DNA of 64,000 nt from an uncultured archaeon (GTDB lineage: Archaea; Asgardarchaeota; Hermodarchaeia; Hermodarchaeales; Hermodarchaeaceae): the NCBI GenBank assembly GCA_964347045.1, contig CAYFXC010000002.1, positions 1 to 64,000 on the forward strand. The letters are read 5' to 3'. Positions within the stretch are counted from its first letter, which is position 1. Each line of letters starts with the position of its first letter. The translations under genes were made by a program, and so were the position numbers. Shown in pieces: positions 9,817 through 32,295 of this stretch. The notes under the pieces were generated by a model, which saw nothing but the letters and a program-made list of their open reading frames with translations, ran no database searches and was not told the origin of the DNA.

Positions 9817-10539
9817 TCAAGCGGTTAGGAGTTCAATGCCGCACTGGCTATCGCCCCGTGCCATACACCCCTTTCGACCAATAGTCTGCACATTCACGTT
9901 GCAGGTCAACGAAAGAAGTTTCGGGTAGTACATCAAGTGAAAATTACACAACAGACCTTCATATTTTCTACTTACTTCGCTGTACAGACAATTCTTTGTT
10001 GTGATGATTATCCTTTTTTTCTGTATTGCCACATGTGCATTATATCCAATTATATTCAGTTCTTGTCGCAGCCTTTGGCGGAAAGATTCAAGGCTCATAG
10101 GAAACCGAGAAGTTTGACTCCAGTTTTCGGCAGTAGCAATCGCAGAATTTACTCCCATTGTTTGAAATATGCGTTCTGTGGCCTCTGTGCCAATTTCGTC
10201 CAGTAATGTCATTATAATGCGATCAGATAGTTGCCAATACCTACGGGGAGGAATGGAAAATAGAAGTGCTTTTTTTAGAACATAATTTGATGATGGACGT
10301 CCGCGTCCTCTTTTTCCTGCCTTTTCTAAGGAGCTGTGAGCTATTAGAACATCTTGAGCAAGAAGATCAGAAATAACATACCGTACTGCTGCATCGCTCA
10401 GATTCGTTCCATCAGCAATTTCTCTAGTCGTTGAATTAGGGTTGGCAGCAATGAACTTTATAACAAGCGTGGCTGCAGTTAAACGATGATGAGTAAGCTG
10501 AGCGAAGGACTCACTACTAAGAATTTTTTTTTCAATCAA
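9817..10539 (-). CDS. ArsR/SufR-like winged-HTH regulator with Cys-rich (V4R-like) C-terminal domain, paralog 1
   Basis: HTH TTREIADGTNLSDAAVRY, wing RGRGRP, NCLY...LCNFH...CMARGDSQC. Confidence 0.82.
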   Translation of the reverse strand: MIEKKILSSESFAQLTHHRLTAATLVIKFIAANPNSTTREIADGTNLSDAAVRYVISDLLAQDVLIAHSSLEKAGKRGRGRPSSNYVLKKALLFSIPPRRYWQLSDRIIMTLLDEIGTEATERIFQTMGVNSAIATAENWSQTSRFPMSLESFRQRLRQELNIIGYNAHVAIQKKRIIITTKNCLYSEVSRKYEGLLCNFHLMYYPKLLSLTCNVNVQTIGRKGCMARGDSQCGIELLTA

Positions 10540-11218: not shown

Positions 11219-11447
11219 ATCCTCTTTTCTTTCGCAATCTTGGCTTCAATTTATGCTTAGAAACTATGTATATATGGATAAACTCAGAAAATTGCGATGG
11301 CTCATATATTGAGGCGATGCGAAAATTTCAGTTCGTGATAAGAGCTTTAGCTTATACGACAAAATTAATTGGAATATTCAATTGAAGCATTTTTGGGGAT
11401 ATTGAAACAATCGTGATGACCCTTGTTCCTACCGAGGTATTTTGGTT

Positions 11448-12230
11448 TTATGATTCGTTTGAGAAATATTTTAAAAACGGAACCAGCAACAACCCAAGAA
11501 GAAATACACTGTTAATGAATGGAATATAGAACATGGTCCAAAGAGCAAATCCAGACCAAAAAGCTAAAGTAAACAAGAGACTTGTCGCGACAAAGAGCGG
11601 TATCTGTTGAGTATTGCTGTATCGAAATTTCATGCATAGAATCAACACTGAGGACATAACAAGTCCTGTAAGAAACCATCCAATAAAATTAGAAAAGGGA
11701 ACACCATAATAGATTCCAGGAGTGAACCAAATCCAAATACCCAGATTAACAAGTATGGGATCGATAGTTAGATCAATAATTACTAAGAGGAGTGCACTAA
11801 GGAGTACAATCTTCCATGGTTTTTGAACATATTTAGTAGCAAATGTAAATGTCCCTAATAAGAGTGGAATGAAAGCAAATGGAACAACCCATGGAACTAG
11901 CCCAAATAGTTTGATTCCCAATGAATCGGAGTAGAAGAAAGAACCATATGGGATTCCTGTTAAAACTCCAAAGCTCTCAATGATAAGGATTAGAAAAGCG
12001 AGGATAAAGACAACAATAATGGTGTTTTGGGAACCGGCCCATCTGTAAAAGAAGTACAAAGAAGGTAAGATTGTGGTAATAATGAATAAATTGAACAGAT
12101 TAATTGGAATTAATGGATGGAGAACGAAGAAAATATAACTCAAGACATATGGACCTAGAATTACTAGAAGAAAAATGAGCAACCGATGTGTACCACTGTT
12201 GGCGCGGGATTCCCGAAGGTTTGCCGTCAT
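11448..12230 (-). CDS. cruF: Carotenoid hydratase, CruF/bisanhydrobacterioruberin hydratase family
   Basis: IESFGVLTGIPYGSFFYS, LGIKLFGLVP, DLTIDPILV, YYGVPFSNFIGW. TAATG overlap with lyeJ fixes the start at 12230. Confidence 0.88.
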   Translation of the reverse strand: MTANLRESRANSGTHRLLIFLLVILGPYVLSYIFFVLHPLIPINLFNLFIITTILPSLYFFYRWAGSQNTIIVVFILAFLILIIESFGVLTGIPYGSFFYSDSLGIKLFGLVPWVVPFAFIPLLLGTFTFATKYVQKPWKIVLLSALLLVIIDLTIDPILVNLGIWIWFTPGIYYGVPFSNFIGWFLTGLVMSSVLILCMKFRYSNTQQIPLFVATSLLFTLAFWSGFALWTMFYIPFINSVFLLGLLLVPFLKYFSNES

Positions 12231-13105
12231 TAGGTAATCACAATCTTTGGTATAGTTATTGTAATGAAGAGGATTAAACCAAAAACGGCGTTCCAGAATG
12301 GAAAAAGCCAATATATTCTGTTGATATTTTCTGCCTGACGAACTAACAGGTAGAGGGGCAAGACGGGATAGATGAACATGAGAAGATTCCATGGAGCGTT
12401 CCAAGGAATAAGAATTACAAGGATGATTGCAAAGATAAACCAGAAAGTAAGGCAAAGAATTAGAGAAGGGATGGCTCCAATAAAGACGGCGGTTGTTGTT
12501 ATATTAGCCTGTCTATCTGCATCAATGTCTGGAATAGCCGAAAAGAGATGCATTGCGGAAGTCCACATGAATGCCGCAAAGAGGGGTAATATTGGTGGAA
12601 TGATGAAGCGCAGTTGATAGAAAGCAAGAATTGCTGGGATTACATAGAGAAAATTAGACATAAAATCGAAGAATGGGCGAGCCTTAAACCTGATAGGTTT
12701 CGAACTATATAGAAACGACAATAATAGGAAGATACCAAAGAGTGCGATGGCAATAATATCGGGTTGAAATATCATTAAGATTAAGCCAAATACAAAAGAG
12801 ATGACTATGAGGGCAAGCAAATTCCGTTTATCTTTGGCAGTCACACGATACTCTTTATCGTCTTTTTTTGGATTGAAGATATCGGTATCTTCATCATAGT
12901 AATCGTTCACACCATATAGGAAAACATTAGCGGGGAACATGAAGAAAAAGAGTTGAAGCACAAAAAAGGGACTAAGGAATTGCGTGAGTGTAGTGATTCC
13001 AATTGCATACCCGATTAGGTATGTACCTCCTAAATAGAGCCAAAATCGTGGTCGAGAAATTCTAACCGCGAGCCTAGCAATGCCGATCAAATTTATCATC
13101 TTCAT
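12230..13105 (-). CDS. lyeJ: UbiA-family prenyltransferase, lycopene elongase LyeJ/CrtEb type
   Basis: SRPRFWLYLGG, YGVNDYYDEDTDIFNPKK, PIRFKARPFFD, MHLFSAIPDIDAD; lies between crtD and cruF. Confidence 0.88.
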   Translation of the reverse strand: MKMINLIGIARLAVRISRPRFWLYLGGTYLIGYAIGITTLTQFLSPFFVLQLFFFMFPANVFLYGVNDYYDEDTDIFNPKKDDKEYRVTAKDKRNLLALIVISFVFGLILMIFQPDIIAIALFGIFLLLSFLYSSKPIRFKARPFFDFMSNFLYVIPAILAFYQLRFIIPPILPLFAAFMWTSAMHLFSAIPDIDADRQANITTTAVFIGAIPSLILCLTFWFIFAIILVILIPWNAPWNLLMFIYPVLPLYLLVRQAENINRIYWLFPFWNAVFGLILFITITIPKIVIT

Positions 13106-14580
13106 TTATCATAGTGTCTATTGATTTGGTCAGTCACAATCTTCGAAGAGACAAGAGCCATTGGAACACCGATCCCTGGATGTGTGTATTGACCAGTGTA
13201 ATAGAGATTGCGTACCTTCTTACTTCGGTGTCGTGGACGAAAGAATGCGGATTGACGGAAGGTGTGAGTAAGACCCACAGCGGTTCCCTTAAATGCGTGA
13301 TAGTCCTGAGTGAAATCATTTAGTGAAAAGATTCGCTTCACACTTATGAAATCACGGAAAGACTCTCCAATAAGTTTCTCCATATGACTAATAATTTTTT
13401 CAAGATAAGTATCTCGAATCGTAGGCGAATCCTCAATCCCAGGTGATATGGGAACCGTTATGAAGATATTCTCCTTCCCTTTTGGAGCTACTAAAGAATC
13501 GAATCTTGAAGGGCAACACACATAATAAGCAGGTTTATCAGGCCATGCCGGATTCTCAAAAATCTGATCGAAATGCTGGACCCAATCATATTCTAAAAAG
13601 ACATTATGGTGAGTTAGCTGATCTAACTTAAGATCGACCCCTAAGTAAACTACAAAAGCGGATGGAGCGATAATCTTTTTCTTCCAATATTTTTCTGAAT
13701 ACGTTTGATATTCCTTATCAAGCAACTCTAGCTCACTGTAAGGATAATCAGCATTGACAACAATCAGATCTGCATCGATTGTTCCTTGTGTCGTTTGAAC
13801 CTGATAGGCCATTCGATTCTTAATTTCTATGCGAGAGGCTTCAATTCCAAATCGAATTTCAGCCCCCTGTTGTTTTGCTAATTTCATCAAACTTTCAGGA
13901 ATCTTTCCTATTCCACCTCGGGGGTACCAAACGCCCAGATTATAATCGATATGCGAAATGATCGAATACATTGCGGGGGTGTTCTTTGGATTGCCACCCA
14001 AAAACACAATGGGGTACTCGAGGATTTTTCGCGCACGATCACTCTTGAAAAATCTTTGCACATATTCATCGATGTTGCTCAAAATATGTAATTTTCGTCC
14101 TGCTTTCATCAAGGAGGGACTAAACATCGACCAGAAACTATCTAAATCTTTATACATGATGCCCTCCATCATGAAGTCATAGGTTTCTTTTGCTTTCAAC
14201 AAATACTGTGCTAACTTTTTGGCTCCACCTTTTTCGAAACCCTCAAAGGTGTGCAAATTGGGCTCAAGATCTGCTGTGATCTCGACAATATCATTGGCTC
14301 CAAAAAAAATCCGATAATTAGGATCAAGACGGATCAATTCATAATAATCTGAAACAGACTTTCCAAATTCGTTAAAGAAGTTCTCAAAGATTTCGGGCAT
14401 CAAATACCAAGAGGGCCCCATATCGAATACAAAACCTTCTGTTTCCCAAACCCGAGCACGACCTCCCGGCTCCAAATTTTGTTCAATCACTTCAACCTCG
14501 TAGCCTTCTTTGGCAAGCAGTGCAGCGGCAGATAAACCACCCACACCCGCACCAATAATCACTACATTCTGTGGTTTCAT
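13102..14580 (-). CDS. crtD: Phytoene desaturase-family enzyme, probable carotenoid 3,4-desaturase CrtD
   Basis: IGAGVGGL Rossmann motif, FDMGPSWYLMP, HPGIGVPM; first gene of the crtD-lyeJ-cruF order known from haloarchaea. Confidence 0.8.
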   Translation of the reverse strand: MKPQNVVIIGAGVGGLSAAALLAKEGYEVEVIEQNLEPGGRARVWETEGFVFDMGPSWYLMPEIFENFFNEFGKSVSDYYELIRLDPNYRIFFGANDIVEITADLEPNLHTFEGFEKGGAKKLAQYLLKAKETYDFMMEGIMYKDLDSFWSMFSPSLMKAGRKLHILSNIDEYVQRFFKSDRARKILEYPIVFLGGNPKNTPAMYSIISHIDYNLGVWYPRGGIGKIPESLMKLAKQQGAEIRFGIEASRIEIKNRMAYQVQTTQGTIDADLIVVNADYPYSELELLDKEYQTYSEKYWKKKIIAPSAFVVYLGVDLKLDQLTHHNVFLEYDWVQHFDQIFENPAWPDKPAYYVCCPSRFDSLVAPKGKENIFITVPISPGIEDSPTIRDTYLEKIISHMEKLIGESFRDFISVKRIFSLNDFTQDYHAFKGTAVGLTHTFRQSAFFRPRHRSKKVRNLYYTGQYTHPGIGVPMALVSSKIVTDQINRHYDK

Positions 14581-14778
14581 AGGGAATTTCCCTCTACTTA
14601 GGGTGATGTCTCTACTTACAATATTTAATGATTATCTGTTAATTCAAATGCTTCTTGTATTTTAAACAACAAAACAAATTTATTAAATAATTATTTTAGG
14701 AAAAGAGAACTTTTTAAAAGGAAAACCCTTCACCTAAAGAGAAGTGATATTCGTTAAATATGTAACTAGGGCGTTATT

Positions 14779-15735
14779 ATGATGATTAGGGGAGAAAGCT
14801 ATCATCTAGATGTTATTCCATCGCAAATCCGAATCAATGATAAGCGTACACAAAGTGACCTCAACCGCGCCTATGATTACTGCATGAAATTATTCAATAA
14901 GTATGCAAAATCCTTCTCATTCGCTGCGCGATATCTCGAACCTCAACAGCGCCGAAGTATTGCTGCACTCTATGGATTTTGCCGACTCGCGGACGACTTT
15001 GTAGACGAAATAAATCTCACACCCAAACAAATTGACGAAGAACTTAATGTTTTGGCTAAGATTATTACTCGACTTAGTAATGGTGAAACCTTTGATCACC
15101 CGGTATATCATGCCTTTGGTGACACTTTGATGAAATACGATATCCCTGTTAGATATCTCTATGAATTACTTGAAGGCGTCCGCATGGACATCTACCGACA
15201 AGAAATACACACACAAGAAGAGCTTGAGCTCTATTGTTTCCGAGTAGCCTCAACAGTTGGACTATCAATGTGCCACATCTGGCGAGCGATACACCCAGAG
15301 ACCCTCCAAAGAGCCGCAGAACTGGGAATAGCTATGCAGCAAACTAATATTCTACGAGATATTGCGGAAGACTATAACAAGGGACGAATTTACATACCAG
15401 CTGAGACACGAAAAAAATTCCGGATTCGCCTAGAAGATTTTGAAACCCGAAAAATAACTTCAAACTTCAAATACTTGTTAAAACACGAAATAGCGAATGC
15501 TCGAGCAAAGTATGCTTTAGCAGAAATCGGTTTACGAGATCTTCCACCTGCCGCATCGTTCACTGTTAAGGTTGCTGCCCGTATCTATGCAAATATTCTG
15601 AATGAAATTGAGAAGATAGATTACCAAATTTTCAAAAAACGAGTTTATGTGCCAAAATGGAAAAAGTTCTGGATTTCTTTCCAATGTCGTCGCGAATATC
15701 TTCATGATATGAAGGAATTTGTTCTTCACCCATAA
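14779..15735 (+). CDS. crtB: Phytoene synthase
   Basis: AKSFSFA, LYGFCRLADDFVD, YCFRVASTVG, QQTNILRDIAEDYNKGRIYIP. Confidence 0.93.
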   Translation: MMIRGESYHLDVIPSQIRINDKRTQSDLNRAYDYCMKLFNKYAKSFSFAARYLEPQQRRSIAALYGFCRLADDFVDEINLTPKQIDEELNVLAKIITRLSNGETFDHPVYHAFGDTLMKYDIPVRYLYELLEGVRMDIYRQEIHTQEELELYCFRVASTVGLSMCHIWRAIHPETLQRAAELGIAMQQTNILRDIAEDYNKGRIYIPAETRKKFRIRLEDFETRKITSNFKYLLKHEIANARAKYALAEIGLRDLPPAASFTVKVAARIYANILNEIEKIDYQIFKKRVYVPKWKKFWISFQCRREYLHDMKEFVLHP

Positions 15736-15780
15736 TTTTTCACAGCTATGAGAATACTAATCACTTAAGGTGAAAAGAGA

Positions 15781-17289
15781 ATGAACGATTCAAATTCACC
15801 AGAAGTAATTATTATAGGCGGAGGTTTTGGGGGCCTTTCAGCAGCCGTGAGAATTCAAGCTGCAGGATACCAAGTCACTCTCTTAGAGAAACGTCACCAG
15901 CTTGGAGGTCGAGCAGGAGTAATTGAACGAAAGGGATTCCGGTTTGATACCGGACCCACAATCATTACCCCGCCCTTTGTGGTTGAAGACATTTTCCGTG
16001 ATGCAGGACGAGATCCAGCGGATTATATAGAACTGGTTTCAATCCACCCACACTACCGCCTCCACTATGCGGATGGCACCCATTTTGATATCGGTACCTT
16101 CGAGGAAGTCGCAGAGCAAATCAAACAGCTAAATCCGCCTGATTTGGAAGGATACCGAAAATGGCTCAAAATTCTTGAACCTATTTATAAACTGGGATTT
16201 GAAAAATTTGCTATGACACCCTTTGAAAGCCTATGGAGCATGGTGAAGATTATTCCCCCTGCTATTCGCCTTAAATCTTACAAGAGCGTATATGGACTTG
16301 TTGCCAGTTACATGAAGAATGAGAAGCTTCGTATGGCATTCTCATTTGTGCCACTCTTTATTGGCGGAAATCCGTTCACTACTACTAGCGTCTACTCACT
16401 AATAGTCTATCTTGAAAACAAGTATGGCATGCTTTGGGTCCGGGGAGGAACCCATCGATTTGTCGAAGCATTAGAAAAATTATTCGTAGAACTTGGAGGA
16501 ACTATCAAAATAAATTCTGAAGTAACAAAAATTAAAATTGATGAAAAAAAACGAATGGTAACCGGAGTCATCACCGCAAACGGGGATCACTATCCAGCGG
16601 ATATTGTAGTGAGTAATGCCGATGTTGCAATGACTTACATGAAACTAATCGATAGACAATTTCGTCGAAAAAATAACGATAAGCGATTCAAAAAAGCCAA
16701 GTATAGTATGAGCCTTTTCATGGTATATTTCGGGACGAAAAAGAAATACCCCGAAATACCTCATCACAACGTCATTTTTGGCCCTCGCTATAAGGAACTA
16801 ATCAAAGATATTTTTGACCGTCATATTCTCCCTGATGACTTTTCCATTTATTTGCATGTTCCAAGTAGGACTGATCCAGAATTAGCACCGCCCGGTTGTG
16901 AAACTTTCTATGCTTGCGTTCCTGTGACCCACCAAGATTCGGGAATCAATTGGGAAGAAATGAAAGAACCCTTTCGAGACCGAGTTTTACAATATCTCAA
17001 TGACCATTACCTTCCCGATCTTTTAAACAACCTTGAAGTATGTGAAATCTTTACTCCACAGGATTTTGAACACGAGCTTAATGCTTACAAAGGCAACGCA
17101 TTTCAATTACAACCGCTCATGACCCAATCAGGGTGGTTCCGTCCACATAATCGATCTCGTGATATCAAGGGATTATATATTGTAGGTGCCGGAACCCATC
17201 CAGGTGCCGGAGTACCGAGCGTTTTACTCAGTGGAAAAATAACATCAGAACTTATTTTTCAGGATAATAAGAAACCAGCTCAAGAATAG
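15781..17289 (+). CDS. crtI: Phytoene desaturase
   Basis: IGGGFGGL, FDTGPTIIT, VGAGTHPGAGVP; directly follows crtB. Confidence 0.92.
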   Translation: MNDSNSPEVIIIGGGFGGLSAAVRIQAAGYQVTLLEKRHQLGGRAGVIERKGFRFDTGPTIITPPFVVEDIFRDAGRDPADYIELVSIHPHYRLHYADGTHFDIGTFEEVAEQIKQLNPPDLEGYRKWLKILEPIYKLGFEKFAMTPFESLWSMVKIIPPAIRLKSYKSVYGLVASYMKNEKLRMAFSFVPLFIGGNPFTTTSVYSLIVYLENKYGMLWVRGGTHRFVEALEKLFVELGGTIKINSEVTKIKIDEKKRMVTGVITANGDHYPADIVVSNADVAMTYMKLIDRQFRRKNNDKRFKKAKYSMSLFMVYFGTKKKYPEIPHHNVIFGPRYKELIKDIFDRHILPDDFSIYLHVPSRTDPELAPPGCETFYACVPVTHQDSGINWEEMKEPFRDRVLQYLNDHYLPDLLNNLEVCEIFTPQDFEHELNAYKGNAFQLQPLMTQSGWFRPHNRSRDIKGLYIVGAGTHPGAGVPSVLLSGKITSELIFQDNKKPAQE

Positions 17290-17300
17290 TCTTACGCCAT

Positions 17301-17795
17301 CTATTCTGGCGATCCAAGAGCAATCGTTTCGACAATATTCACCAACTTAACAATATTCAAAGGCTTCTCAGGACTAAGAGCTTGCCAACCCTCTGATGTC
17401 TTCAATCCATGTGCGGCAAGAAAGTTAGGTGATAATTGCCGAGAACCGACTTTTGCCATATGGATAATCGCTTTTTCCCTCTCACCAGGTTCATTCACTA
17501 TTTCAAGTTCCCCTCGGAAGACTACAAAACAATATTGATGTAAATCAGGTTTGTAGGTTTCAATTTCAACCGCAACGCGATTGTCGTGTTCAATCAGTTT
17601 CATTTTCTTTCCATAACGCGTGAAATGAAAGTAGAGAGTTCCATCAATATACGCATATTGAAAAGGAGACATATAGGGATATTCATCTCCCCGAAAAGCA
17701 ATTCGACATATCACCTGATTATGTAATAGCGCCTCAATCAATTTCCTTTCCATTTGAGGTAATTTCACTATAGAAATCTTATTCACCCCATACAT
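17301..17795 (-). CDS. Pyridoxamine 5'-phosphate oxidase-like split-barrel flavin-binding protein (NimA-like)
   Basis: CRIAF..EYPYMSP, LYFHFT..GKKM, VVFRG. The start may be GTG near 17768. Confidence 0.82.
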   Translation of the reverse strand: MYGVNKISIVKLPQMERKLIEALLHNQVICRIAFRGDEYPYMSPFQYAYIDGTLYFHFTRYGKKMKLIEHDNRVAVEIETYKPDLHQYCFVVFRGELEIVNEPGEREKAIIHMAKVGSRQLSPNFLAAHGLKTSEGWQALSPEKPLNIVKLVNIVETIALGSPE

Positions 17796-17852
17796 ACTTT
17801 AGGATGCCTTCTCAAATATATTCGATAGGGATTCATCAACAAGGGTAAGAAA

Positions 17853-19247
17853 TTGAGTAAATTATATAAAAAAACTCTTTTCATCTTTCGTCGTGATCTT
17901 CGACTAGTTGATAACACTGGATTAATTCGCGCTTTAGAAGATTCTAACCAAGTCCTGCCAAGCTTTTTCCTTGATCCCAGACTTCTGAAGCAATCTAGCC
18001 CACATCTGAATGCCATCCAATTCATGGCTGAAGCACTACAAGACCTAGATTTACGACTTCAACACCAAAACAGCCAACTGTTATTCTCTTCAGGTATACC
18101 TGAAAAAATGATTTTCAAACTATTGAAAACCTATGAAATTGATGCAGTGTTTATTAACCGTGATTATTCACCCTTCAGTCGTCAAAGAGATGCGCAAATT
18201 AGAAATGTATGTAAGAAGGCAAAGGTGGCATTTCACCAATTCGCGGATTCTCTGCTTAATGAACCAGAAATGATCCTTAAGGCCAATAATGAACCCTATA
18301 AAGTATTTACTCCCTATTTCAGAAAAGCCTTAGAACTCCCCATAAGTCTTCCAAAAGAAAATTCCTTCAAAAATTATGTAAAAATCAGACCAGGAAGCCA
18401 AAAGAAGGTAACAGTCCCATTCAAGCATATAAAAACCAAAAACAACAAATCACTTCTCGTTCAAGGTTCAAGAACTGCAGCTCTTGCTATTCTCTCAAAT
18501 TTACAAGACTTTAGGCAATATAAAATAACCAGAGATTTTCCTAATCAACATGGCACCACCCGCCTTTCAGCGTATATTAAATTTGGAAGTTGCTCTGTGC
18601 GCGAAGTATATAATGCCATCAAAAAGCAGCTTGGAATAAATCATCCACTTATTCGCCAACTCTATTGGCGAGATTTCTACACGCATATCGCGTTCCATTA
18701 TCCGCATGTGTTTGAGGGAGCCTTTAAACCCCGATATAATAAGATTCAATGGAACAATGATAAGATGCTATTTGAAACATGGCGCAAAGGAATGACAGGA
18801 TTCCCCATTGTAGATGCGGGTATTCGTGAACTCAATGAAACGGGTTGGATGCATAATCGTGTCCGGATGATTGTAGCATCATTCTTAACCAAAGATCTAC
18901 ATATCAATTGGCAGTGGGGAGAACGGTATTTTGCCAGCAAACTTGTCGATTATGATCCCGCAGTCAACAATGGAAACTGGCAATGGGCTGCATCAACAGG
19001 AGTTGACGCACAACCATATTTTCGAATCTTTAATCCATGGCTACAACAAATAAAGTATGATGCAGATTGTGAATATATCAAAAAATGGATTCCTGATTTG
19101 TCCAAACTTGAACCCAAAATCATTCACACATGGCATAAACCAACTAAATGGGATTCAAAAATTAAGTATCCAAAACCGGTAGTTGATCATAAAGTCGAAA
19201 GTCAATATTCTAAGGAACTATATGCAGCAACATTTTCAGCCAAATGA
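17853..19247 (+). CDS. phrB: Class I CPD DNA photolyase
   Basis: FRRDLRLVDN, YKVFTPYF, LYWRDFY, GFPIVDAG, WMHNRVRMIVASFL, NNGNWQW, FRIFNP. Confidence 0.96.
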   Translation: MSKLYKKTLFIFRRDLRLVDNTGLIRALEDSNQVLPSFFLDPRLLKQSSPHLNAIQFMAEALQDLDLRLQHQNSQLLFSSGIPEKMIFKLLKTYEIDAVFINRDYSPFSRQRDAQIRNVCKKAKVAFHQFADSLLNEPEMILKANNEPYKVFTPYFRKALELPISLPKENSFKNYVKIRPGSQKKVTVPFKHIKTKNNKSLLVQGSRTAALAILSNLQDFRQYKITRDFPNQHGTTRLSAYIKFGSCSVREVYNAIKKQLGINHPLIRQLYWRDFYTHIAFHYPHVFEGAFKPRYNKIQWNNDKMLFETWRKGMTGFPIVDAGIRELNETGWMHNRVRMIVASFLTKDLHINWQWGERYFASKLVDYDPAVNNGNWQWAASTGVDAQPYFRIFNPWLQQIKYDADCEYIKKWIPDLSKLEPKIIHTWHKPTKWDSKIKYPKPVVDHKVESQYSKELYAATFSAK

Positions 19248-19703
19248 TATTGAGTAACTGCCAATTGATCCCCAATTTTCAGTTTTATCGTTCTCAGATT
19301 TTTTTGCACAAAAATGAATTATAACTTGTGCCTTATCAAACATGCCGTTTTTTTCAAAAAATTCACGATCTCCATATCGGATGCTCTCTAATACGAGAGG
19401 TAACTCCCGACGAAAGATGCCTTCGCGGAATCGTCGTGAACCCAAACCTCGACTAACTTGACAGTAAACATTCAAAATACATTCATCCGCTTTTTGGACC
19501 AATTCAGCAAAAATCTCATCTCGCATTAAACGTGAAAACAAACCCCTAACCTGCTTTTTATCATATTCTGGTCCCACTGTAAGGAAAAGTTCCCCCGTTC
19601 GATCTGAATGAGTAAGAGTATATCTTCGTGGAATTAGAACATCAAGTGATTGGGGGAAAGGGAGGAAACGAACCTTGAGTTTATTTGGATTCAGTCTCGT
19701 CAT
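19236..19703 (-). CDS. Stay-green (SGR, Mg-dechelatase family) homolog
   Basis: PRRYTLTHSDRTGELFLTVG, RDEIFAE, IFRRELPLVLESIRYGD, VIIHF, ENWG: the characteristic Staygreen blocks. Confidence 0.9.
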   Translation of the reverse strand: MTRLNPNKLKVRFLPFPQSLDVLIPRRYTLTHSDRTGELFLTVGPEYDKKQVRGLFSRLMRDEIFAELVQKADECILNVYCQVSRGLGSRRFREGIFRRELPLVLESIRYGDREFFEKNGMFDKAQVIIHFCAKKSENDKTENWGSIGSYSISFG

Positions 19704-19731
19704 TATCGTTTCGCTGAATTGTAAATGGTTG

Positions 19732-20196
19732 TTATAGTTTTAATTCGGTAATTTTGGTGATTACTTCGTCGACATGACCGGGAACTCGGACCTGTGGCCA
19801 TATATGTCTAATTATACCGTTGCGATCAATAAGGAAGGTTGTTCGTTTTGCTGAACCAGTTTCAGGTTTCAATACATCATAGAGTTTGACAACGGTTAGC
19901 TCCTTATCTGCAATAAGTGGAAACTGCAGAGCGTTTTTTTCCTTAAACCCGGCTTGGCGTTTCACGCTATCAGTGCTTACCCCAACGACTTTCACCCCCA
20001 TACCCGTCAACCGAACCATATTATCTCTAAATGAGCATGCTTCCTTTGTACAACTGGGAGTACCAGCTCGGGGGTAAAAATAGAGCACTACGACGTTTCC
20101 TCTTAGTTGGCTCAGGGTAAGTTCAGAACCTTCATCTGTGGGTTGAGTAAAATCCGGAGCAGCTTCTCCAATTTTTGGCATTGTCACATCTATCAC
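19732..20196 (-). CDS. bcp: BCP/PrxQ peroxiredoxin
   Basis: VVLYFYPRAGTPSCTKEACSFRD (CxxxxC). The true start is probably 20187 or 20181. Confidence 0.93.
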   Translation of the reverse strand: MIDVTMPKIGEAAPDFTQPTDEGSELTLSQLRGNVVVLYFYPRAGTPSCTKEACSFRDNMVRLTGMGVKVVGVSTDSVKRQAGFKEKNALQFPLIADKELTVVKLYDVLKPETGSAKRTTFLIDRNGIIRHIWPQVRVPGHVDEVITKITELKL

Positions 20197-20248
20197 CTCG
20201 AAGGATACTAATAGGAATTCACTATAAGAATTTTAGATAAAGGGTAAA

Positions 20249-20276
20249 GTAATGAGGGGAATTTCCCCCTCATTAC
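20249..20276 (-). terminator. Stem-loop downstream of the fasciclin gene
   Basis: 11-bp inverted repeat GTAATGAGGGG/CCCCTCATTAC, followed on the minus strand by TTTACCCTTT. Confidence 0.6.
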
Positions 20277-20294
20277 AAGTCAATTCTACAGTTC

Positions 20295-20696
20295 TTATTT
20301 GGGCAAAATAACCTTGTCAATGACATGGATCACGCCGTTCTCAGCTTCTATGTCAGCTTTGATTACGTGAGCTTCATCGATTTTAACACCATCTGAGGCG
20401 TCAATTTGGATACTTTGACCTTGGACCGTTTTGATTTCGTCTTTACTAATGACGTCTGCGGCTTTGTATTTTCCTGCTACAACATGGTAGAGGAGTATAG
20501 CCTTCAGCTTTTCTGTATCTTTTAGAAGAGCTTCAACTGTGCCTTCAGGAAGAGCAGCAAAAGCATCGTCAGTAGGGGCAAATACCGTAAAAGGTCCATC
20601 ATTAGATAAGGTTTCGGCTAAACCAGCCGCGGTTGCAGCCGTTAACAGAGTGTCAAACTGGCCTGCATCTTTTGCAATTTTTACTATATTTTCCAT
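20295..20696 (-). CDS. Single FAS1/fasciclin domain protein without a signal peptide
   Basis: [33 protein letters not shown]. Confidence 0.95.
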
Positions 20697-20940
20697 GTTT
20701 CATCCATCCTTTTATTATGAACTCGAGGATGGTTGTGTTCAACCATTCTCGGAATTAACGATGTTAAGATTGAAAGTGGTATATAAATATTGTTCTTGAT
20801 TAAAAGATTATTTAAATAAAAATTATTTGTCTCCTATAACTATAACCCTGCACTTAACCAGTGAAATCACTCTAAATAGGAATCTAGTGATTCCGAAAGG
20901 AAAAGCCATTATCGACGGTGAGGCGATTTTATCCAATGAA

Positions 20941-21579
20941 TTATGCCTTCCGTACGCGGAAGAGGACAATTAACCCAAAGATGATTTTTGTGATCACATC
21001 TAAAGCCGCATAGAATATCGCAGCAATGAATGTTGTAATTAGACCGAATCCAGTTGGGGCAAGAATGAATACCAACGGAAAGAGTGACCAGAAAATTATA
21101 ATGAACCACATAAGTTGTGAATTTATTCCTTCTCTAGGTATACCCCTGAATAACGTGATTAAAAGAGCAATGTAGGCAATAGAACTGAACCCAAAGAACC
21201 ACCACCGCTCGATACCTGTAATAAATGCAGCTAGGAATCCACAAAACATCACAAGCATCGTCAAAAGAGGAATTTTCGCGAGATTGATTGGTTGTGTCTG
21301 TTTTAAAATAACTGCAACAGAAACTGTTAGTAAACTACAGCTACCCATATAAAAGAGCCAGCGGCTCCAGTAAATCAGTTCTCCAAAAGTTGAGGCGATA
21401 ACTGCAAACCCGAGCGCCATAAGAACATAAGAAATTGTAGTAACGAAAGCAACAAGGATATCAACCAATGATAGAAATTCGTCAGCTCCAGATTGGAATG
21501 AGAACACAGTAAACATAATCGTTGCGATACCAAAGATTGCAGCCATAATCCAAAAAACGAGTAATTCTATTCCAGCCAT
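20941..21579 (-). CDS. Microbial rhodopsin, schizorhodopsin-like (212 aa)
   Basis: 7 TM helices; helix C YWSRWLFYMGSC (Phe at the BR D85 position, Cys at T90), helix F FWSLFP, helix G LDVITK with the Schiff-base Lys198. Confidence 0.9.
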   Translation of the reverse strand: MAGIELLVFWIMAAIFGIATIMFTVFSFQSGADEFLSLVDILVAFVTTISYVLMALGFAVIASTFGELIYWSRWLFYMGSCSLLTVSVAVILKQTQPINLAKIPLLTMLVMFCGFLAAFITGIERWWFFGFSSIAYIALLITLFRGIPREGINSQLMWFIIIFWSLFPLVFILAPTGFGLITTFIAAIFYAALDVITKIIFGLIVLFRVRKA

Positions 21580-21625
21580 TTTTACAGCTCCTTTTGATAG
21601 GAAGGGTGAGAAGAAAGAGTACTAG

Positions 21626-21643
21626 CTTATTATAAAATATTTC
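21626..21643 (-). promoter_or_regulatory. Probable archaeal BRE/TATA promoter of the rhodopsin gene
   Basis: Minus-strand GAAATATTTTATAATAAG about 50 nt upstream of the ATG, with AGGAG RBS. Similar TTTATAAT at 22181-22188 and TTTATATA at 20780-20787. Confidence 0.5.
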
Positions 21644-21685
21644 AACTAGACGAAATAGCTGAGTAAAATCGAAAAGGAATCATTA

Positions 21686-22150
21686 CTAGCCATGAAATTC
21701 AGAGATTTTTCTTAGGACTGCATTCTCCTTTTCTTCTGAAAACGTTCCAGTATCTCGCCATAGGATATTGCCATCACAATCGACTAAAAAGAGATAAATC
21801 GTCTCCTCAGTGGGAATATCTAATGCCTGGGTAAATTCATCTTTGTTGATATACAGGGTAATCGTTCGAGCTCGCATTTCTTTATCGCGAATTCCGCTCC
21901 TCATTCCGCTATCAATCATCCATTGTGAAAGTACGTTAAATTTCCGTAACGTTGGCAATTCATAGAATTGGATTTGTGGATGTTTAGCAACTAGCTTCAG
22001 AAGAAAGGGAACCCAAGTTTCAATTGGAGCCACTTGCCACCGCTGAAATGCCACTACAAGAAAATTCAACTTTCCTTCCAATTTATCGGGAATGGTGTGT
22101 TGAACACCATTGAGGTCCTTTCCAGATACTTGAGGAAATTTCATTGACAA
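21686..22150 (-). CDS. ATP10-like / thioredoxin-fold protein
   Basis: FPQVSGKDLNG, LVVAF, FYELP, IDSGMRSGI, FLVDCDGNILW resemble prokaryotic ATP10-like proteins; no CxxC. Confidence 0.7.
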   Translation of the reverse strand: MSMKFPQVSGKDLNGVQHTIPDKLEGKLNFLVVAFQRWQVAPIETWVPFLLKLVAKHPQIQFYELPTLRKFNVLSQWMIDSGMRSGIRDKEMRARTITLYINKDEFTQALDIPTEETIYLFLVDCDGNILWRDTGTFSEEKENAVLRKISEFHG

Positions 22151-22283
22151 TCACAACCTAGAGTTTACAAAAGGGCTTCAATTATAAAATTTTACAAATT
22201 ACGGATTTATGATATTAGTTTTAAATTAAGCATAACGTTCCAAGATAGTATAGCCAAATACTGTATTGAAGAGATATTATATA

Positions 22284-23759
22284 TCACGGCATGTGAACCT
22301 GTTTCTGTGTCCTTTCAGCTATTCTAAGGCACATATTCTTCCAAATGTGGAGATGCATAGGTAAAGTAAATTTCCAGTAAACGATTCCTAATAACCCCTT
22401 GGGAATATATGTGATGATTTGCCTTAGTTCTGATTTCTTTTCCTTTTTCTTGCGAATTATAAATTCGAGAGTGGAGCGAGCAGGTATTTGAGTCTCCGCC
22501 TTCAATTTGAGATAATGGGGAGCATCTACTGTACTTATTCTCCAACAATCTAGTGCATCACCTGGACATAGATTATCACCATCAGTGCGACCTCTTCTGG
22601 TTCCTACTCCACCGATGAGTTCATCGAAACCACCATATATACGCCATAACCAATTGGCATAATACCACCCGGTTGGACCACCAATTTGAATAACTGGATC
22701 CCACAACTCTTCCGGGGTACAATCAACTTCAGCCTTTCGATGATCATAATATACCGTTCCGCCTGCCCAGGACGGGTCGTTAGGTTGAGTCCATTCAGGA
22801 ACAAAATCTGCTGTATTTGTTTGGAAACGAGATCGTTGAATTTGTTCGTCAATCTCTTGAAGAGCGAGTCGGATTGTGACTCGATTAGTGAGAAGCTTTT
22901 GGGGGATGAGTTTCCGAATTCGCTTTTCTCTACAGATGGTTTGGCTTTTTAACCCTTTAATAAGGGGTCTAGCGAGTGATTGCGGAAGCGGTGTTACTTT
23001 ATCAATCAAAAGTTCAGTTAGTCTTCTTCCCACAAATGGTAAGGGTATTAAAATCCGTTTTCTCAATTTAGCTTCCTGAGCAAACGTGTGTATAAGACCT
23101 GGATAGCTGATTACTTCTGGTCCCCCAATATCGAAGGTTTTTCCGATGGTTTCAGGAACTGTTAGACACTTCAAGAGGTAAGTGAGCGCATTGCTTATAG
23201 CAATTGGTTGTGTTTTACTCTGAGACCAGCGGGGTGTAATCATAATTGGTAATCGTTCAACGACGTAGCGCATTATCTCAAAAGATGCACTGCCTGCACC
23301 AAGCAACATGGCAGCTCTTAAGGTTGTTACAGGAACTGAACCTAATTGAAGAATTCGGGCAACTTCTGCTCTTGACAGAAGATGCTTACTTAATCTGTCC
23401 CGGCGATCTAACAAGCCACCTAGGTAGATAATTCGGTCTAATCCAACTTTTGCTGCTACCCCAGCCATATTTGACGCAGCGTCTCGATCGAGTTGAATGT
23501 ACTGTTTTCCCGAATACATTGAATGAACTAAATAATATGCAGTAGAGCAACCGTGAAGTGCATGTTGAAGAGTTTCTGGTTTCAAGACATCAACTTGAAC
23601 AGGTTGAACTCGGCTATCTTTCGCCCATGAACAACGTTTGAGTTTTATAGCTGATCGGAATGAAGCCCGAACAGCATATCCATTATCCGCTAATAGTCGA
23701 ACTAAGCGTTGACCGACATATCCCGTTGCACCTAGTACTAACACGTTTCGGGTTTTCAT
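22284..23759 (-). CDS. NAD(P)H-binding SDR/epimerase with C-terminal DUF2867 (YbjT-like)
   Basis: VLGATGYVG, YYLVHSM, GAGSASFE, IGGPTGWYYANWLW. Confidence 0.88.
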   Translation of the reverse strand: MKTRNVLVLGATGYVGQRLVRLLADNGYAVRASFRSAIKLKRCSWAKDSRVQPVQVDVLKPETLQHALHGCSTAYYLVHSMYSGKQYIQLDRDAASNMAGVAAKVGLDRIIYLGGLLDRRDRLSKHLLSRAEVARILQLGSVPVTTLRAAMLLGAGSASFEIMRYVVERLPIMITPRWSQSKTQPIAISNALTYLLKCLTVPETIGKTFDIGGPEVISYPGLIHTFAQEAKLRKRILIPLPFVGRRLTELLIDKVTPLPQSLARPLIKGLKSQTICREKRIRKLIPQKLLTNRVTIRLALQEIDEQIQRSRFQTNTADFVPEWTQPNDPSWAGGTVYYDHRKAEVDCTPEELWDPVIQIGGPTGWYYANWLWRIYGGFDELIGGVGTRRGRTDGDNLCPGDALDCWRISTVDAPHYLKLKAETQIPARSTLEFIIRKKKEKKSELRQIITYIPKGLLGIVYWKFTLPMHLHIWKNMCLRIAERTQKQVHMP

Positions 23760-23881
23760 TTGAAAACCTCTATATCTTGACTATAGCCTAATTATTTCTT
23801 TTTACAGATGCCTTTGAAGTTCTAATCTTTCTGAACAGATTGAAAACGCATTCCTTAATTATTTGTTAGGATTTGACAAAT

Positions 23882-25243
23882 CTAGTCATGGGGTGGTTCA
23901 ACACGTAAAAAGCGTCCAACCAAAGTGACAATATCGACGACGGGAATCTCTAACCCGAGTTTTTGCATTCCCTGTGTTAGATTAAGAACGCAAAAGGGAC
24001 ATGCGGAAACAACCATGGTCGCTCCTGCTTCCATAATTTCACTGACCCGTTCCCAAGCCATGCGTTCTTCTAGGGGCATTATCGCTTTCTCTTCTTCAGA
24101 AAGCCCGTGATACTCTTTTGCGAGTTTCTTTGCAGCTTCTCGGACTTGCGAAGGAGTACTCGCTGGTTCGGCATCGTAAATACGTTTCGCAGCAATTTCT
24201 AGGGCCAACTCAGGAATCCCTGCTTTAACTCCTCCTCCAGCACCACAACAACGTGAGTTTTCTCTAGTTCGAATCATTTCAACTAGTGTTATGCCAGGTA
24301 AGGATTCAAGGATTCGTCGTGGAGCATCATAGATGCCCACATGACGTCCAAGATGACAGGGATCATGATAGGCGACCCGTTCTTCTACCCCTGGAATAGG
24401 TTCAATCTCCACATTTTCCAAAGCTTTTGCTAGAAATTGAGTAATGTGTTGAACTTTGAAAGGTAGCCTACCATAATAACGAGGCCAATCGAATACCGAG
24501 GTTCGAAAGCAGCCAGCGCAGGAGTAAATTACAAGCTTAGCACCCTTCTCATTTATGACTTCAACATTGTGCTGAACTAAATCTTTGACAACATCGATTT
24601 GTCCGGTTCGGATTAGTGGAGAGCCACAGCAGCGTTCATCGGTACCAGGGAGAACGAAATCAATGTTAAGTTTGTTTAGAATTCGAGCCGTGGTAATAGC
24701 GAGATGTTGCATCTTATAGGATGATGTACAGCCCACAAAGTAGGCGATATCTGCGTTTTCTGCTACCTTGACATCAGGAGGTAACCAATTCGAACGTGAT
24801 AGGTGATCCTCTCCATAGGGGTTGTACTTTGTTTTTACGTTGCTAGGCCAAGCTCGTTGTCGTTCAAGAGGTCCGAAACCCTGCCTAATCATATCTGCGC
24901 GAATTGTTTCCCATAAATCACAGCTCTTAATCCGTGATTCACAAACTGTTTGACATTGTCCGCACACCGTACACAGATACAGGTCTTCAACAAATTTGTT
25001 AATCTTGTTTTGGTCAATAGCACTTCCGCCACGAGCCCGCCCCATCAATCCATAGACCCGTTTTACCATCTCTCGCATATTGCGAATTTTACCTCGGGCT
25101 GTAACACCTTCACGTTGTAATTGATCGAAAACAGGACAAAACTTTACACATTCACCGCAATCAACGCAAGCATCAAGTTCCATTGCTTGTTTCCGAGTTA
25201 ACTGGGGGAAACTAATTTTTTCTTTATTCGTTGTCACTTTCAT
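23882..25243 (-). CDS. HdrD/GlpC-like Fe-S oxidoreductase (2 ferredoxin motifs + 2 CCG domains)
   Basis: CVDCGECVKFCP, CTVCGQCQTVC, ERCCG, YHDPCHLGR, SRCCGAGGG, SACPFC. ATG 25243 follows GGAG. Confidence 0.9.
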   Translation of the reverse strand: MKVTTNKEKISFPQLTRKQAMELDACVDCGECVKFCPVFDQLQREGVTARGKIRNMREMVKRVYGLMGRARGGSAIDQNKINKFVEDLYLCTVCGQCQTVCESRIKSCDLWETIRADMIRQGFGPLERQRAWPSNVKTKYNPYGEDHLSRSNWLPPDVKVAENADIAYFVGCTSSYKMQHLAITTARILNKLNIDFVLPGTDERCCGSPLIRTGQIDVVKDLVQHNVEVINEKGAKLVIYSCAGCFRTSVFDWPRYYGRLPFKVQHITQFLAKALENVEIEPIPGVEERVAYHDPCHLGRHVGIYDAPRRILESLPGITLVEMIRTRENSRCCGAGGGVKAGIPELALEIAAKRIYDAEPASTPSQVREAAKKLAKEYHGLSEEEKAIMPLEERMAWERVSEIMEAGATMVVSACPFCVLNLTQGMQKLGLEIPVVDIVTLVGRFLRVEPPHD

Positions 25244-25952
25244 CAACTCCTGTGATCTCACGGACATATTCTTCTTGCCACTTCTCTTCAATGGCACTTC
25301 GAACCATGATGATGGGTGCAGCGATTACATGCTGAAATTTTGAATAAAATAAGACTGCAATCATTGTCCAGATAACAAATGCGTGAACGATACCAAACCA
25401 TCCTCGAACCCCCAAGACATATTCATATGAAAATGCTAGGTGGCCTGATACGGCAATTGCTAATAACAAAATTAAGGGAAGGTAATTACGAAGATTAGTA
25501 ACACCGCGCCCTTCTTTGGATCCAAGGCGACTTCCAAACGCCATTATTATACCAATCACAAACAGTACTGTCAACAGATCATGGGTGATGATTCGTAGTT
25601 CGAGCGTTGCCCAAGGGAAAAGAATGGTTTCATCAAGTAATATGAAGCGAGGAATCCCATGAAAGAGTAGTAGTCCCATAAAGCCGACAAGGATGAACCC
25701 ATGTTTCACCCATCGATATGTACTTTGACGCCGAATGGTTCCACCGAATGTCCAATCAGATACTATAGTCTTCACGAATGCAATGAACTTGGTACGAAAA
25801 GGAACATCAATGAGCCAACCAGCTGTATGCTCAGCGGGCCCTTGATGGGGTTTGAACCAGCGAACAAGAATTCTGAAAATTCCAATAGCAAAAAGAGCTA
25901 GTGCGACCCACCGATAAACAGATAATATTTGATAGAACAGCTCCTGTTGCAT
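25224..25952 (-). CDS. NarI/HdrE-like membrane b-type cytochrome subunit
   Basis: 5-6 TM helices; paired His in RWVKHGFILVGFMGLLLFH and VHAFV...SKFQHV; overlaps the HdrD-like gene. Confidence 0.8.
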   Translation of the reverse strand: MQQELFYQILSVYRWVALALFAIGIFRILVRWFKPHQGPAEHTAGWLIDVPFRTKFIAFVKTIVSDWTFGGTIRRQSTYRWVKHGFILVGFMGLLLFHGIPRFILLDETILFPWATLELRIITHDLLTVLFVIGIIMAFGSRLGSKEGRGVTNLRNYLPLILLLAIAVSGHLAFSYEYVLGVRGWFGIVHAFVIWTMIAVLFYSKFQHVIAAPIIMVRSAIEEKWQEEYVREITGVDESDNE

Positions 25953-26060
25953 ATCATTTCGCCTACTTTAATCAAGTGTAATAATTGTAATCAAAAGACT
26001 TACTAATTTACAAATCAGAACCCAGTTCAACAATTTCACTAATTTGTAAAAAAAGGGGGA

Positions 26061-26102
26061 AAAATTGGAGGGGCTGATTCGTTTCAGTCACCCTCCAATT
26101 TT
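26061..26102 (-). terminator. Stem-loop terminator after the DoxX/DoxD gene
   Basis: AAAATTGGAGGG...CCCTCCAATTTT inverted repeat, followed by a T tract on the minus strand. Confidence 0.6.
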
Positions 26103-26119
26103 GTTTCTTCTGGGAAAAT

Positions 26120-26815: not shown

Positions 26816-26961
26816 TTTTATTTCTCCTTTAAAGGAAAGTGAAAAACGAGGCTTTGGGTTCCCTTTTATATATTGCACTATTGTATTTGTGTAAAATTGA
26901 ATTAATAGGTAATCAATTATTCAGTTTCTGTTTATAAAATCCTCGATTCTTTTCCCTCAAA

Positions 26962-27758: not shown

Positions 27759-28028
27759 TTAACCGTATTGGAACGCAGCGCCAAAGGTGCCCCTTGGGTG
27801 ATCCCATTTAATGACTCTTTTAGGGCAAAGAATTCTACAGGTTCCGCATTCAATACAGTCCTCGTATTGAAAAAGAAGTTTACCTTCTTCAATTTTGAAA
27901 CATCCAGCAGGACAGCCTGCGATGCAGGGTTTAGTTTTACAGTTTTCGCATTCATCTGTTTCTACGATTATATGGGGTTCTTTATCAATGTTGTAACGGA
28001 TGAGTCCAAGTTTTTCTTCAAGTCTCAT
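27759..28028 (-). CDS. fixX: FixX-type ferredoxin
   Basis: PHII, CIAGCPAGCF, CIECGTCRILC, WDHPRGTFG; ATGA overlap with fixC. Confidence 0.9.
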   Translation of the reverse strand: MRLEEKLGLIRYNIDKEPHIIVETDECENCKTKPCIAGCPAGCFKIEEGKLLFQYEDCIECGTCRILCPKRVIKWDHPRGTFGAAFQYG

Positions 28029-32282: not shown

Positions 32283-32295
32283 TAATCAGGAACCG

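Follow-up and report, generated by a model that had tools for sequence, protein, structure and literature searches.

A probable photoprotection and light-use gene island in the Asgard archaeal genus Ca. Hermodarchaeum

Genes for carotenoid synthesis, a photolyase and an opsin lie close together in a 64,000-nucleotide stretch of DNA from an uncultured archaeon (positions 1 to 64,000 of contig CAYFXC010000002.1, assembly GCA_964347045.1; hereafter the window), and several described systems resemble parts of this gene island. The haloarchaeal bacterioruberin genes crtD-lyeJ-cruF correspond to c0507-c0505 of Haloarcula japonica, and the haloarchaeal bop regulon links opsin to carotenoid genes. Among Asgard archaea, Heimdallarchaeia were reportedly assigned a "sunlit microoxic niche" by Bulzu et al. 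in 2019. Bacterial light regulons run by B12 photoreceptors, namely CarH in Myxococcus and Thermus and LitR in Thermus, Streptomyces and Bacillus, have carotenoid genes and often a photolyase gene adjoining the sensor gene (PMC9304148, PMC8156234).

By gene content, the CarH/LitR regulon is the closest functional analogue of the island. Both cluster crt genes with a photolyase, both share a protective logic of pigment plus DNA repair, and other genomes of the genus (congeners) add a CarH-type B12 module with W-x9-EH and the His ligand. In contrast, the host is an archaeon with TATA-type promoters, the congeners' sensor carries an N-terminal photoglobin in place of the MerR DNA-binding domain, and the island adds an opsin as well as Stay-green (SGR), BCP, FAS1 and ATP10-like proteins; with no sensor gene, the locus studied here would fall outside that class. 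The haloarchaeal crtD-lyeJ-cruF genes and the Asgard schizorhodopsins (SzRs) are closest in parts. Gene order is identical to the haloarchaeal one, an opsin gene again lies near carotenoid genes, and the LyeJ- and CrtD-type proteins score above NCBIfam cut-offs; Hermodarchaeum, however, is no halophile, no bat, brp/blh or crtY was found in it, its opsin is of the schizorhodopsin family, and fixC-fixX are attached to crtB-crtI in relatives. With the described schizorhodopsins (PMC7148096; 7e4g) the locus shares the opsin family, an Asgard host and a co-occurring photolyase, whereas it differs in its Hermodarchaeia lineage, in an opsin triad without a carboxylate, in the opsin's place within a carotenoid and repair island, and in a genome where no oxidases were found. 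Finally, photocobilins and related photoglobin-B12 proteins (PMC10979010, PMC8717448, PMC11796333) resemble the congeners' sensor in joining a CarH-type B12 module to a bilin-type globin with four light motifs. Unlike the crystallised SasPcob and AbPcob, in which the globin is C-terminal, the congener sensor has it at the N-terminus, and its gene is found within a carotenoid/photolyase island and not in the company of two-component signalling genes.

The query genome (G000) is a 2.58-Mb metagenome-assembled genome (MAG), 89% complete and 3.8% contaminated, with the window on its 180-kb contig C2. A first-pass annotation had taken the source for a probable Asgard archaeon, and the comparison agrees: the host belongs to the genus Ca. 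Hermodarchaeum, its congeners being Hermodarchaeum/Hermodarchaeota genomes, and a Ras-family GTPase is encoded at 32296-32847. Comparison extended to 14 congeners, 4 sister-genus genomes and 43 other Asgard genomes, with island genes placed in the congeners by tblastn; these MAGs are incomplete, and a missing gene means one not found rather than one absent. The conserved island comprises 12 genes at 11448-22150, and we consider it likely that it is a genus-wide photoprotection and light-use island of at least six transcription units.

Gene content, order and selection

The first-pass annotation had described 13 contiguous open reading frames (ORFs) as a compact light and photo-oxidative stress island. 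Profile searches found all 13 present and intact at those positions, in the families then named. The 12 that make up the conserved block, with the intergenic regions discussed below, are as follows.

11448-12230, minus strand: cruF, carotenoid hydratase of the C50 pathway (PF04240, E 3e-39)
12230-13105, minus strand: lyeJ-type UbiA prenyltransferase of the lycopene elongase/hydratase type (NCBIfam PRK12875, 298 bits against a cut-off of 205)
13102-14580, minus strand: crtD, CrtID-type carotenoid 3,4-desaturase (NF058655, 673 bits against a cut-off of 640)
14581-14778: crtD/crtB divergent promoter region, with a TATA-like block conserved on each side (alignment of 8 orthologous regions)
14779-15735, plus strand: crtB, phytoene synthase (PF00494, E 1.7e-67)
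15781-17289, plus strand: crtI, phytoene desaturase (TIGR02734, 586 bits)
17290-17300: crtI/PNPOx junction of 11 nt, the site of sensor and fixCX loss (comparison with loci L018, L023, L024, L019, L056, L057 and L014)
17301-17795, minus strand: PNPOx-like split-barrel flavoprotein (Pyridox_ox_2, PF12900, E 3e-19)
17796-17852: PNPOx/phr divergent promoter region of 57 nt (alignment of 7 genomes)
17853-19247, plus strand: phr, class I-type cyclobutane pyrimidine dimer photolyase, best model of the 8-hydroxy-5-deazaflavin (8-HDF) type (PF03441, E 3e-79; PF00875, E 2e-40)
19236-19703, minus strand: SGR (Mg-dechelatase family) homologue (PF12638, E 2e-41)
19732-20196, minus strand: bcp, BCP/PrxQ-type peroxiredoxin (PF00578, AhpC-TSA, E 2e-39)
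20295-20696, minus strand: fas1, single-domain FAS1 (fasciclin) protein (PF02469, E 6e-41)
20941-21579, minus strand: schizorhodopsin-family opsin (Bac_rhodopsin; PDB 7e4g SzR4, E 5e-32; AntR, E 2.5e-28)
21686-22150, minus strand: ATP10-like protein of about 152 aa, probable start ATG 22144 (PF05176, ATP-synt_10, E 6.5e-7)

The same arrangement recurs across the genus. The set cruF-lyeJ-crtD diverges from crtB-crtI, to which fixC-fixX may be appended; an optional B12 sensor gene and the PNPOx-like gene follow on the opposite strand, the latter divergent from phr; and beyond phr, facing it, come a variable SGR-bcp-fas1 cassette, the opsin gene and the ATP10-like gene. This core order is kept in G006, G011, G013, G010, G001, G008, G012, G002 and G007. 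Among the congeners, lyeJ was found in 12 of 14, the opsin in 10, the ATP10-like gene in 9 and SGR in 7. The four sister-genus genomes yielded SGR twice and none of the other three genes, and the 43 other Asgard genomes yielded lyeJ, opsin and SGR once each and the ATP10-like gene twice. The block itself was not found in the sister genus, and only its carotenoid module was found, once, among the 43. Within the genus, the earlier suggestion that the neighbourhood be compared across relatives is answered by linkage: the same genes lie together in most of the 14 congeners.

Variation within this order is confined to certain parts. The SGR-bcp-fas1 cassette is missing between phr and the opsin gene in G003, G010 and G013, and SGR alone is missing there in G001. 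In G012 an opsin-fas1-bcp-SGR cassette has moved to another contig (L016:8051-14754, G012:C34), between uracil-DNA-glycosylase plus AAT-family genes and PolX (pol beta + PHP), and the ATP10-like gene now abuts phr. The relocated cassette is once more among DNA-repair genes.

Pairwise comparison with four congeners gave dN/dS (nonsynonymous over synonymous divergence) of 0.03-0.16, with dN at 0.03-0.29 and dS at least 0.7 and mostly saturated. The opsin and phr fell at 0.07-0.13, and the value of about 0.3 for cruF is inflated by a spurious N-terminus. Because dN/dS is low, the island genes are being maintained by purifying selection; and because adjacency has been kept in most congeners despite saturation at synonymous sites, their clustering goes beyond chance. 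Composition was examined for signs of horizontal transfer, as had been proposed, and the island deviates: with a GC content of 39.2%, where the genome as a whole has 42.9%, it ranks at the 0.8th percentile of 397 windows, and its tetranucleotide distance lies at the 96.5th percentile. For SGR and the ATP10-like protein, the nearest characterised or named relatives are in Chloroflexota. Low GC and deviant tetranucleotides, taken with the lack of a tRNA, integrase or flanking repeat, are consistent with a block that was acquired long ago at the base of the genus and later rearranged.

The carotenoid genes match the gene set of the bacterioruberin (C50) pathway, with LyeJ-type, CrtD-type and CruF proteins in one operon, plus CrtB and CrtI, and a C50 bacterioruberin-type carotenoid is the predicted product. 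The gene crtD overlaps the start of lyeJ by 4 nt, and the likely cruF start, ATG 12230, overlaps the lyeJ stop by 1 nt (TAATG); with these overlapping stop and start codons, the three therefore form one translationally coupled operon. A longer, 335-aa cruF ORF from TTG 12455 was rejected: its first 75 codons fall within lyeJ, and the match to the CruF model starts beyond them. Next to lyeJ, cruF is found in G006, G013, G007 and the distant Asgard genome G052, and not in G011 or G008. The crtI gene of G007 may be truncated, with alignment over only 322 of 502 crtI residues (L079:974-1939, G007:C45).

Among the remaining genes, the 57-nt spacer between the PNPOx-like gene and phr is almost invariant in 7 species and is the best-conserved non-coding stretch of the island. 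SGR aligns over its full length with a solved bacterial homologue (PDB 7y5y, E 1e-39), and bcp has a 64%-identical paralogue on contig C13 of G000. The FAS1 protein, which has no signal peptide, is the most conserved island protein (88-93% identity in congeners, dN 0.03-0.05). Among single-domain PDB entries it matches Rhodobacter Fdp (1w7d) and cyanobacterial CupS (2mxa/6tjv) best, at E about 1e-34, and carotenoid-binding AstaP is more distant (E 4e-10). The alignment with CupS, the cytoplasmic FAS1 subunit of cyanobacterial NDH-1MS, runs end to end. In G000 a 2M-type nuo operon is found immediately upstream of the island. Roles in photoprotection may be suggested from context for the SGR, FAS1, ATP10-like and PNPOx-like proteins.

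Opsin, B12 sensor and promoters

The island opsin is the only opsin of G000. It retains the retinal Lys (DVITK), has Phe at the position of bacteriorhodopsin (BR) Asp85 (RWLF), and finds its best PDB matches in SzR4 and AntR. In place of F-S/T-E/D, its helix-C triad reads F-S-S. This form is shared by all 10 Hermodarchaeum opsins, whereas the nearest outgroups (Asgard genome G058, Aminicenantes, Methanomicrobiaceae and Bathyarchaeia) have F-S-D. Ser occupies the BR Asp96 position in all 10, against Glu or Asp in 58 of 63 SzRs. Work with SzR1 has shown that the E81Q mutant loses pumping and that Glu or Asp at the BR Asp96 position is needed for inward pumping (PMC7148096). With this cytoplasmic carboxylate missing, the opsin is therefore probably no canonical inward H+ pump, and a non-canonical function is likely. 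The ATP10-like gene lies directly upstream, adjoins the opsin gene in 8 genomes and shows the same pattern of presence and absence within the genus; its atlas clusters score 0.97-0.98. Outside the genus the association was not seen: schizorhodopsin homologues in Aminicenantes, Methanomicrobiaceae, Bathyarchaeia and G058 have no island genes within 10 kb, and the ATP10-like gene of G052 has no light-related neighbours. PF05834 matches were rejected as lycopene cyclases, since the family is non-specific, with matches in E. coli and M. jannaschii too, and the loci concerned also match FixC-like flavoproteins.

What distinguishes G000 from several congeners is the 11-nt junction between crtI and the PNPOx-like gene. 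At this position G011 and G010 carry fixC, fixX and a 349-351-aa protein with both a B12-binding_2 and a B12-binding domain, G008 carries the B12 gene alone, and G013, G001 and G012 carry fixCX. The B12 gene is full length in G011, G010 and G008, is cut by contig ends in G002 and G014, and persists as a short decayed remnant in G006, G001 and G012. Because congeners carry the gene or its remnants at that site, the lack of a sensor in G000 reflects a lineage-specific loss in which the gene was cleanly deleted. The first-pass annotation had seen no CarH/LitR regulator, and the genome bears this out: its only B12-binding match is an MtbC-like corrinoid protein (C5:105054-105671) without W-x9-EH or light signature. 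An Rfam scan of 9000-30000 gave no matches, hence no B12 riboswitch.

The congeners' protein reads W-x9-EH and shows the full set of four motifs (GxxW, EH, GxxH and GxxxP) by which light-responsive cobalamin domains are proposed to be recognised (PMC11796333). In the PDB it is closest to the photocobilins 8j2w/x/y. Its first 130 residues, on which a 20-sequence profile was used, are a phycobiliprotein-type globin (photoglobin; E to 6e-8) and also match the photocobilin globin domain; no helix-turn-helix (HTH) or MerR-type DNA-binding domain was found in the protein. Members of the family, about 355 aa long, occur widely in bacteria and in some archaea, including Lokiarchaeota and Methanocella, and photoglobin-B12 proteins have already been described (PMC8717448, PMC10979010); the congener sensor is thus a new member of this known family, with the globin in front instead of behind. 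The PNPOx-like gene lies directly upstream of the sensor gene on the same strand in congeners (loci L018, L057). A two-gene unit of PNPOx and sensor is plausible, and the flavoprotein may have a bilin-related role.

The first-pass annotation had assigned several genes their own TATA boxes (20780, 21629 and 22181) and read the block as a clustered regulon rather than one operon. TATA-like octamers do occur there on the minus strand, as TTTATATA at 20787-20780 and as TTTTATAA at 21637-21630 and 22189-22182; their distances upstream of the start codons are 84 nt (fas1), 51 nt (opsin) and 32-38 nt (ATP10-like). Alignment of 8 orthologous upstream regions shows the opsin's TATA block to be conserved, along with a GGAG ribosome-binding site. 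The island appears to consist of at least six transcription units, and an AT-rich TATA-like element precedes each unit. A 17-nt TATA block is common to the opsin and ATP10-like promoters. The 8-mer AATCCGTA lies at 17823-17830 and at 22201-22208 (minus strand), a few bases upstream of the PNPOx-like and ATP10-like TATA-like elements, and recurs in 5 of 7 and 3 of 6 orthologous regions, respectively. It may be an operator half-site or chance, and the 17-nt block could likewise be chance. The palindrome GGGAATTTCCC, before crtD and bcp, was rejected as an operator, being essentially ribosome-binding region and not conserved in relatives.

Boundaries, flanking genes and displaced fixCX

The genes around the island that bear on its limits are listed here.

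9817-10539: HTH_A, 240-aa winged HTH regulator beside the nuo operon
22284-23759, minus strand: short-chain dehydrogenase/reductase (SDR; NmrA) plus DUF2867 gene, a neighbour and not an island member, part of an SDR-CCG-DoxD (respiratory) block
26962-27684: HTH_B, 240-aa winged HTH regulator beside DoxD/CCG
27762-29305, minus strand: fixX (27762-28025) and fixC (28028-29305), displaced island members (tblastn, 59-65% identity to G011 proteins)

Contig chimerism, which had been named as a possible objection, was ruled out: the window is collinear with G006:C64 and G007:C34 on both flanks of the island. G000 and G006:C64 are collinear from cruF to the ATP10-like gene and again from fixX/fixC to about 45 kb, and the intervening segment at 22284-27684 (SDR-DUF2867, a CCG/4Fe-4S protein, orf242, DoxD and HTH_B) has no counterpart in G006. 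G007:C34 is collinear with 4.5-40.5 kb of the window minus the island and HTH_B. In G000 the block lies between the nuo/HTH_A flank and the SDR-CCG-DoxD block; in G007 these flanks are contiguous, with orf107 and SDR-DUF2867 joined by a 265-nt spacer (L077:16716-16980), and the carotenoid, PNPOx, phr, SGR, bcp and fas1 genes are on other contigs. When this spacer was compared with 11219-11447 and 22151-22283 of the window, a 25-nt stretch showed a weak likeness to the 3' end of cruF and to the 5' end of the ATP10-like gene, the two ends of the island; a deletion scar is conceivable, and the likeness is too weak to rely on. Of the marks of a mobile island, an empty site in a relative (G007:C34) and deviant GC were found; there was no tRNA in 1-40000, no flanking repeat, and no integrase among annotated neighbours. 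Further out, a TackOD1-domain protein and the Ras-family small GTPase are neighbours at 31383-32847, and both are kept in G006 and G007.

These comparisons take away the proposed thirteenth member. SDR-DUF2867 was found in 2 of 14 congeners, touches the island only in G000 and probably G009, and in G007 lies directly beside the left-flank genes with no island between. Nor do the flanking Cys-rich regulators, earlier put forward as possible sensors, retain that standing. HTH_A and HTH_B, paralogues that share 48% identity and a Cys-rich MetOD1/V4R-like C-terminal domain, are tied to respiratory modules, and HTH_B is not at this position in G006 and G007. They are poor sensor candidates because neither accompanies the island in any relative.

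By contrast, fixC and fixX, now separated from the crt genes and 5.5 kb from the island in G000, continue crtB-crtI in five congeners (G011, G010, G013, G001 and G012) and in G052. The latter belongs to a distant Asgard family, is the sole lyeJ-bearing genome among the 43 other Asgard genomes, and has crtB-crtI-fixC-fixX opposite crtD-lyeJ-cruF (L072:5574-13002, G052:C34; about 60% identity). This shared order makes FixCX, therefore, an ancestral part of the carotenoid module. FixCX, an ETF-QO-like flavoprotein plus ferredoxin, may serve as an oxygen-independent electron outlet for the carotenoid desaturases, and the linkage suggests that crtBI-linked FixCX is an unrecognised redox partner of carotenoid desaturation in anaerobes.

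Function, alternatives and meaning

If the block is indeed a photoprotection and light-use island, CrtB and CrtI with the coupled CrtD, LyeJ and CruF would make lycopene and extend it to a bacterioruberin-type C50 carotenoid, which could act as membrane antioxidant and light screen. The divergent PNPOx-like/photolyase pair would provide light-driven repair of UV dimers, and the variable cassette would contribute peroxide removal (BCP), a homologue of tetrapyrrole-demetallating enzymes (SGR) and a cytoplasmic FAS1 protein. The ATP10-like and opsin genes would supply a schizorhodopsin-family retinal protein that uses scavenged retinal and is probably not a canonical inward H+ pump. The ancestral island would have had fixC-fixX as the tail of the crtB-crtI operon and a photoglobin-CarH-type B12 sensor gene downstream of the PNPOx-like gene. 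Because it has no DNA-binding domain, that sensor would have had to signal through a partner, as AerR does. In G000 the sensor gene is gone without trace, and fixCX has become split from the crt genes. Induction by light, the part played by a sensor and the function of the opsin are all conditional on this scheme.

Several observations weigh against it. Neither haem-copper oxidase (PF00115) nor cytochrome bd oxidase (PF01654) was found in the 89%-complete genome; terminal oxidases are thus missing from the gene complement found, although a complex I-type operon and DoxD genes are present. The published Hermodarchaeota MAGs were obtained 15-45 cm down in dark, anoxic mangrove sediment, a poor fit to a sunlit niche; Hermodarchaeia have been described as anaerobic hydrocarbon degraders, and the founding paper makes no mention of light, carotenoids, photolyase or opsins (PMC8163825). 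A search of the available literature likewise found no paper tying Hermodarchaeia to any of these. No Blh/Brp, heterodimeric lycopene cyclase or RPE65-type carotenoid oxygenase was found in the genome, so that retinal for the opsin would have to be scavenged, and no B12 photoreceptor with the light signature was found in the window or elsewhere in G000. Two identifications stay below NCBIfam equivalog level, CruF scoring 126 bits against a TIGR03460 cut-off of 154.7 and the photolyase falling under that of TIGR03556 (E 3e-113). A motif search found no operator common to all island promoters. Lastly, there are congeners that lack cruF, congeners that lack the SGR-bcp-fas1 cassette, and likewise for the opsin/ATP10-like pair and for the sensor; the island is modular and not one fixed system. 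The integrated light-response system of the first-pass annotation accordingly stands in part: the block is conserved and its functions centre on light and photo-oxidative damage, whereas the thirteenth member and the flanking regulators drop out, and the sunlit, oxygen-exposed niche is doubtful in its second half, with no terminal oxidase found and relatives from anoxic sediment. The simplest reconciliation may be an anaerobe that is periodically exposed at the sediment surface.

Some of these observations would suit a general oxidative-stress or membrane-adaptation island, in which the C50 carotenoids would serve to stiffen and protect membranes and BCP to remove peroxides, with photolyase and opsin as passengers that came down with the block. 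The organism looks anaerobic, dark sediment is the source of its relatives, a pathway to retinal was not found, and at least four species have a decayed sensor gene or have lost it. We nevertheless judge this account unlikely: the photolyase, the opsin and the relatives' B12 photoreceptor need light, and all are under purifying selection, while the PNPOx/phr promoter region is the island's best-conserved non-coding stretch. A more specific proposal, and a distinctly unlikely one, is an ancestral light regulon of carotenoid, photolyase, peroxiredoxin and opsin genes run by the photoglobin-B12 (adenosylcobalamin/bilin) sensor through a partner, with the PNPOx-like protein supplying or reducing bilin; after loss of the sensor, the F-S-S opsin and the ATP10-like protein would be the remaining light input.

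It is also conceivable that the genes form a horizontally acquired accessory island and travel together without working together. Low GC, deviant tetranucleotide use, restriction to one genus, a chromosomal location that differs among G000, G006 and G007, and the Chloroflexota affinities of SGR and the ATP10-like protein would all agree with this; yet the internal order has persisted through several rearrangements and through divergence that saturated synonymous sites, the block is marked by no integrase, tRNA or flanking repeat, and the gene functions converge on light and reactive oxygen species, which leaves it improbable. The least probable account is that of the first-pass annotation, which makes either the atypical opsin or the flanking Cys-rich HTH regulators the controlling sensor of an island regulon. 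Ser in place of Glu/Asp in all Hermodarchaeum opsins, set beside the non-pumping SzR1 E81Q, makes a non-pump role plausible, no other photoreceptor was found in G000, and the Cys-rich domain of HTH_A and HTH_B is conserved. The opsin, however, has no transducer or output domain and no conserved neighbouring regulator, and G002 and G007, in which no opsin match was obtained, keep carotenoid genes, G007 the photolyase too. As for the HTH proteins, neither is beside the island in any relative, HTH_A of G007 adjoins the empty site, and HTH_B lies within the segment missing from G006.

The photoprotection and light-use reading thus remains the one we favour, and the island it describes is ecologically surprising for Hermodarchaeia, yet assembled from known families. 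It provides context leads for prokaryotic Stay-green, cytoplasmic FAS1, the ATP10-like protein, crtBI-attached FixCX and photoglobin-B12 sensors, and sister species with and without the sensor form a natural comparison series. Were the ancestral photoglobin-B12 regulon real, it would be the first B12/bilin-controlled photoprotection regulon in archaea, and evidence of a light-exposed life phase in a supposedly subsurface, anaerobic Asgard lineage. Conserved light-dependent genes under purifying selection imply regular exposure to light and oxidants at the sediment surface, and such a light-exposed phase would widen the ecological picture of the archaea closest to eukaryotes.

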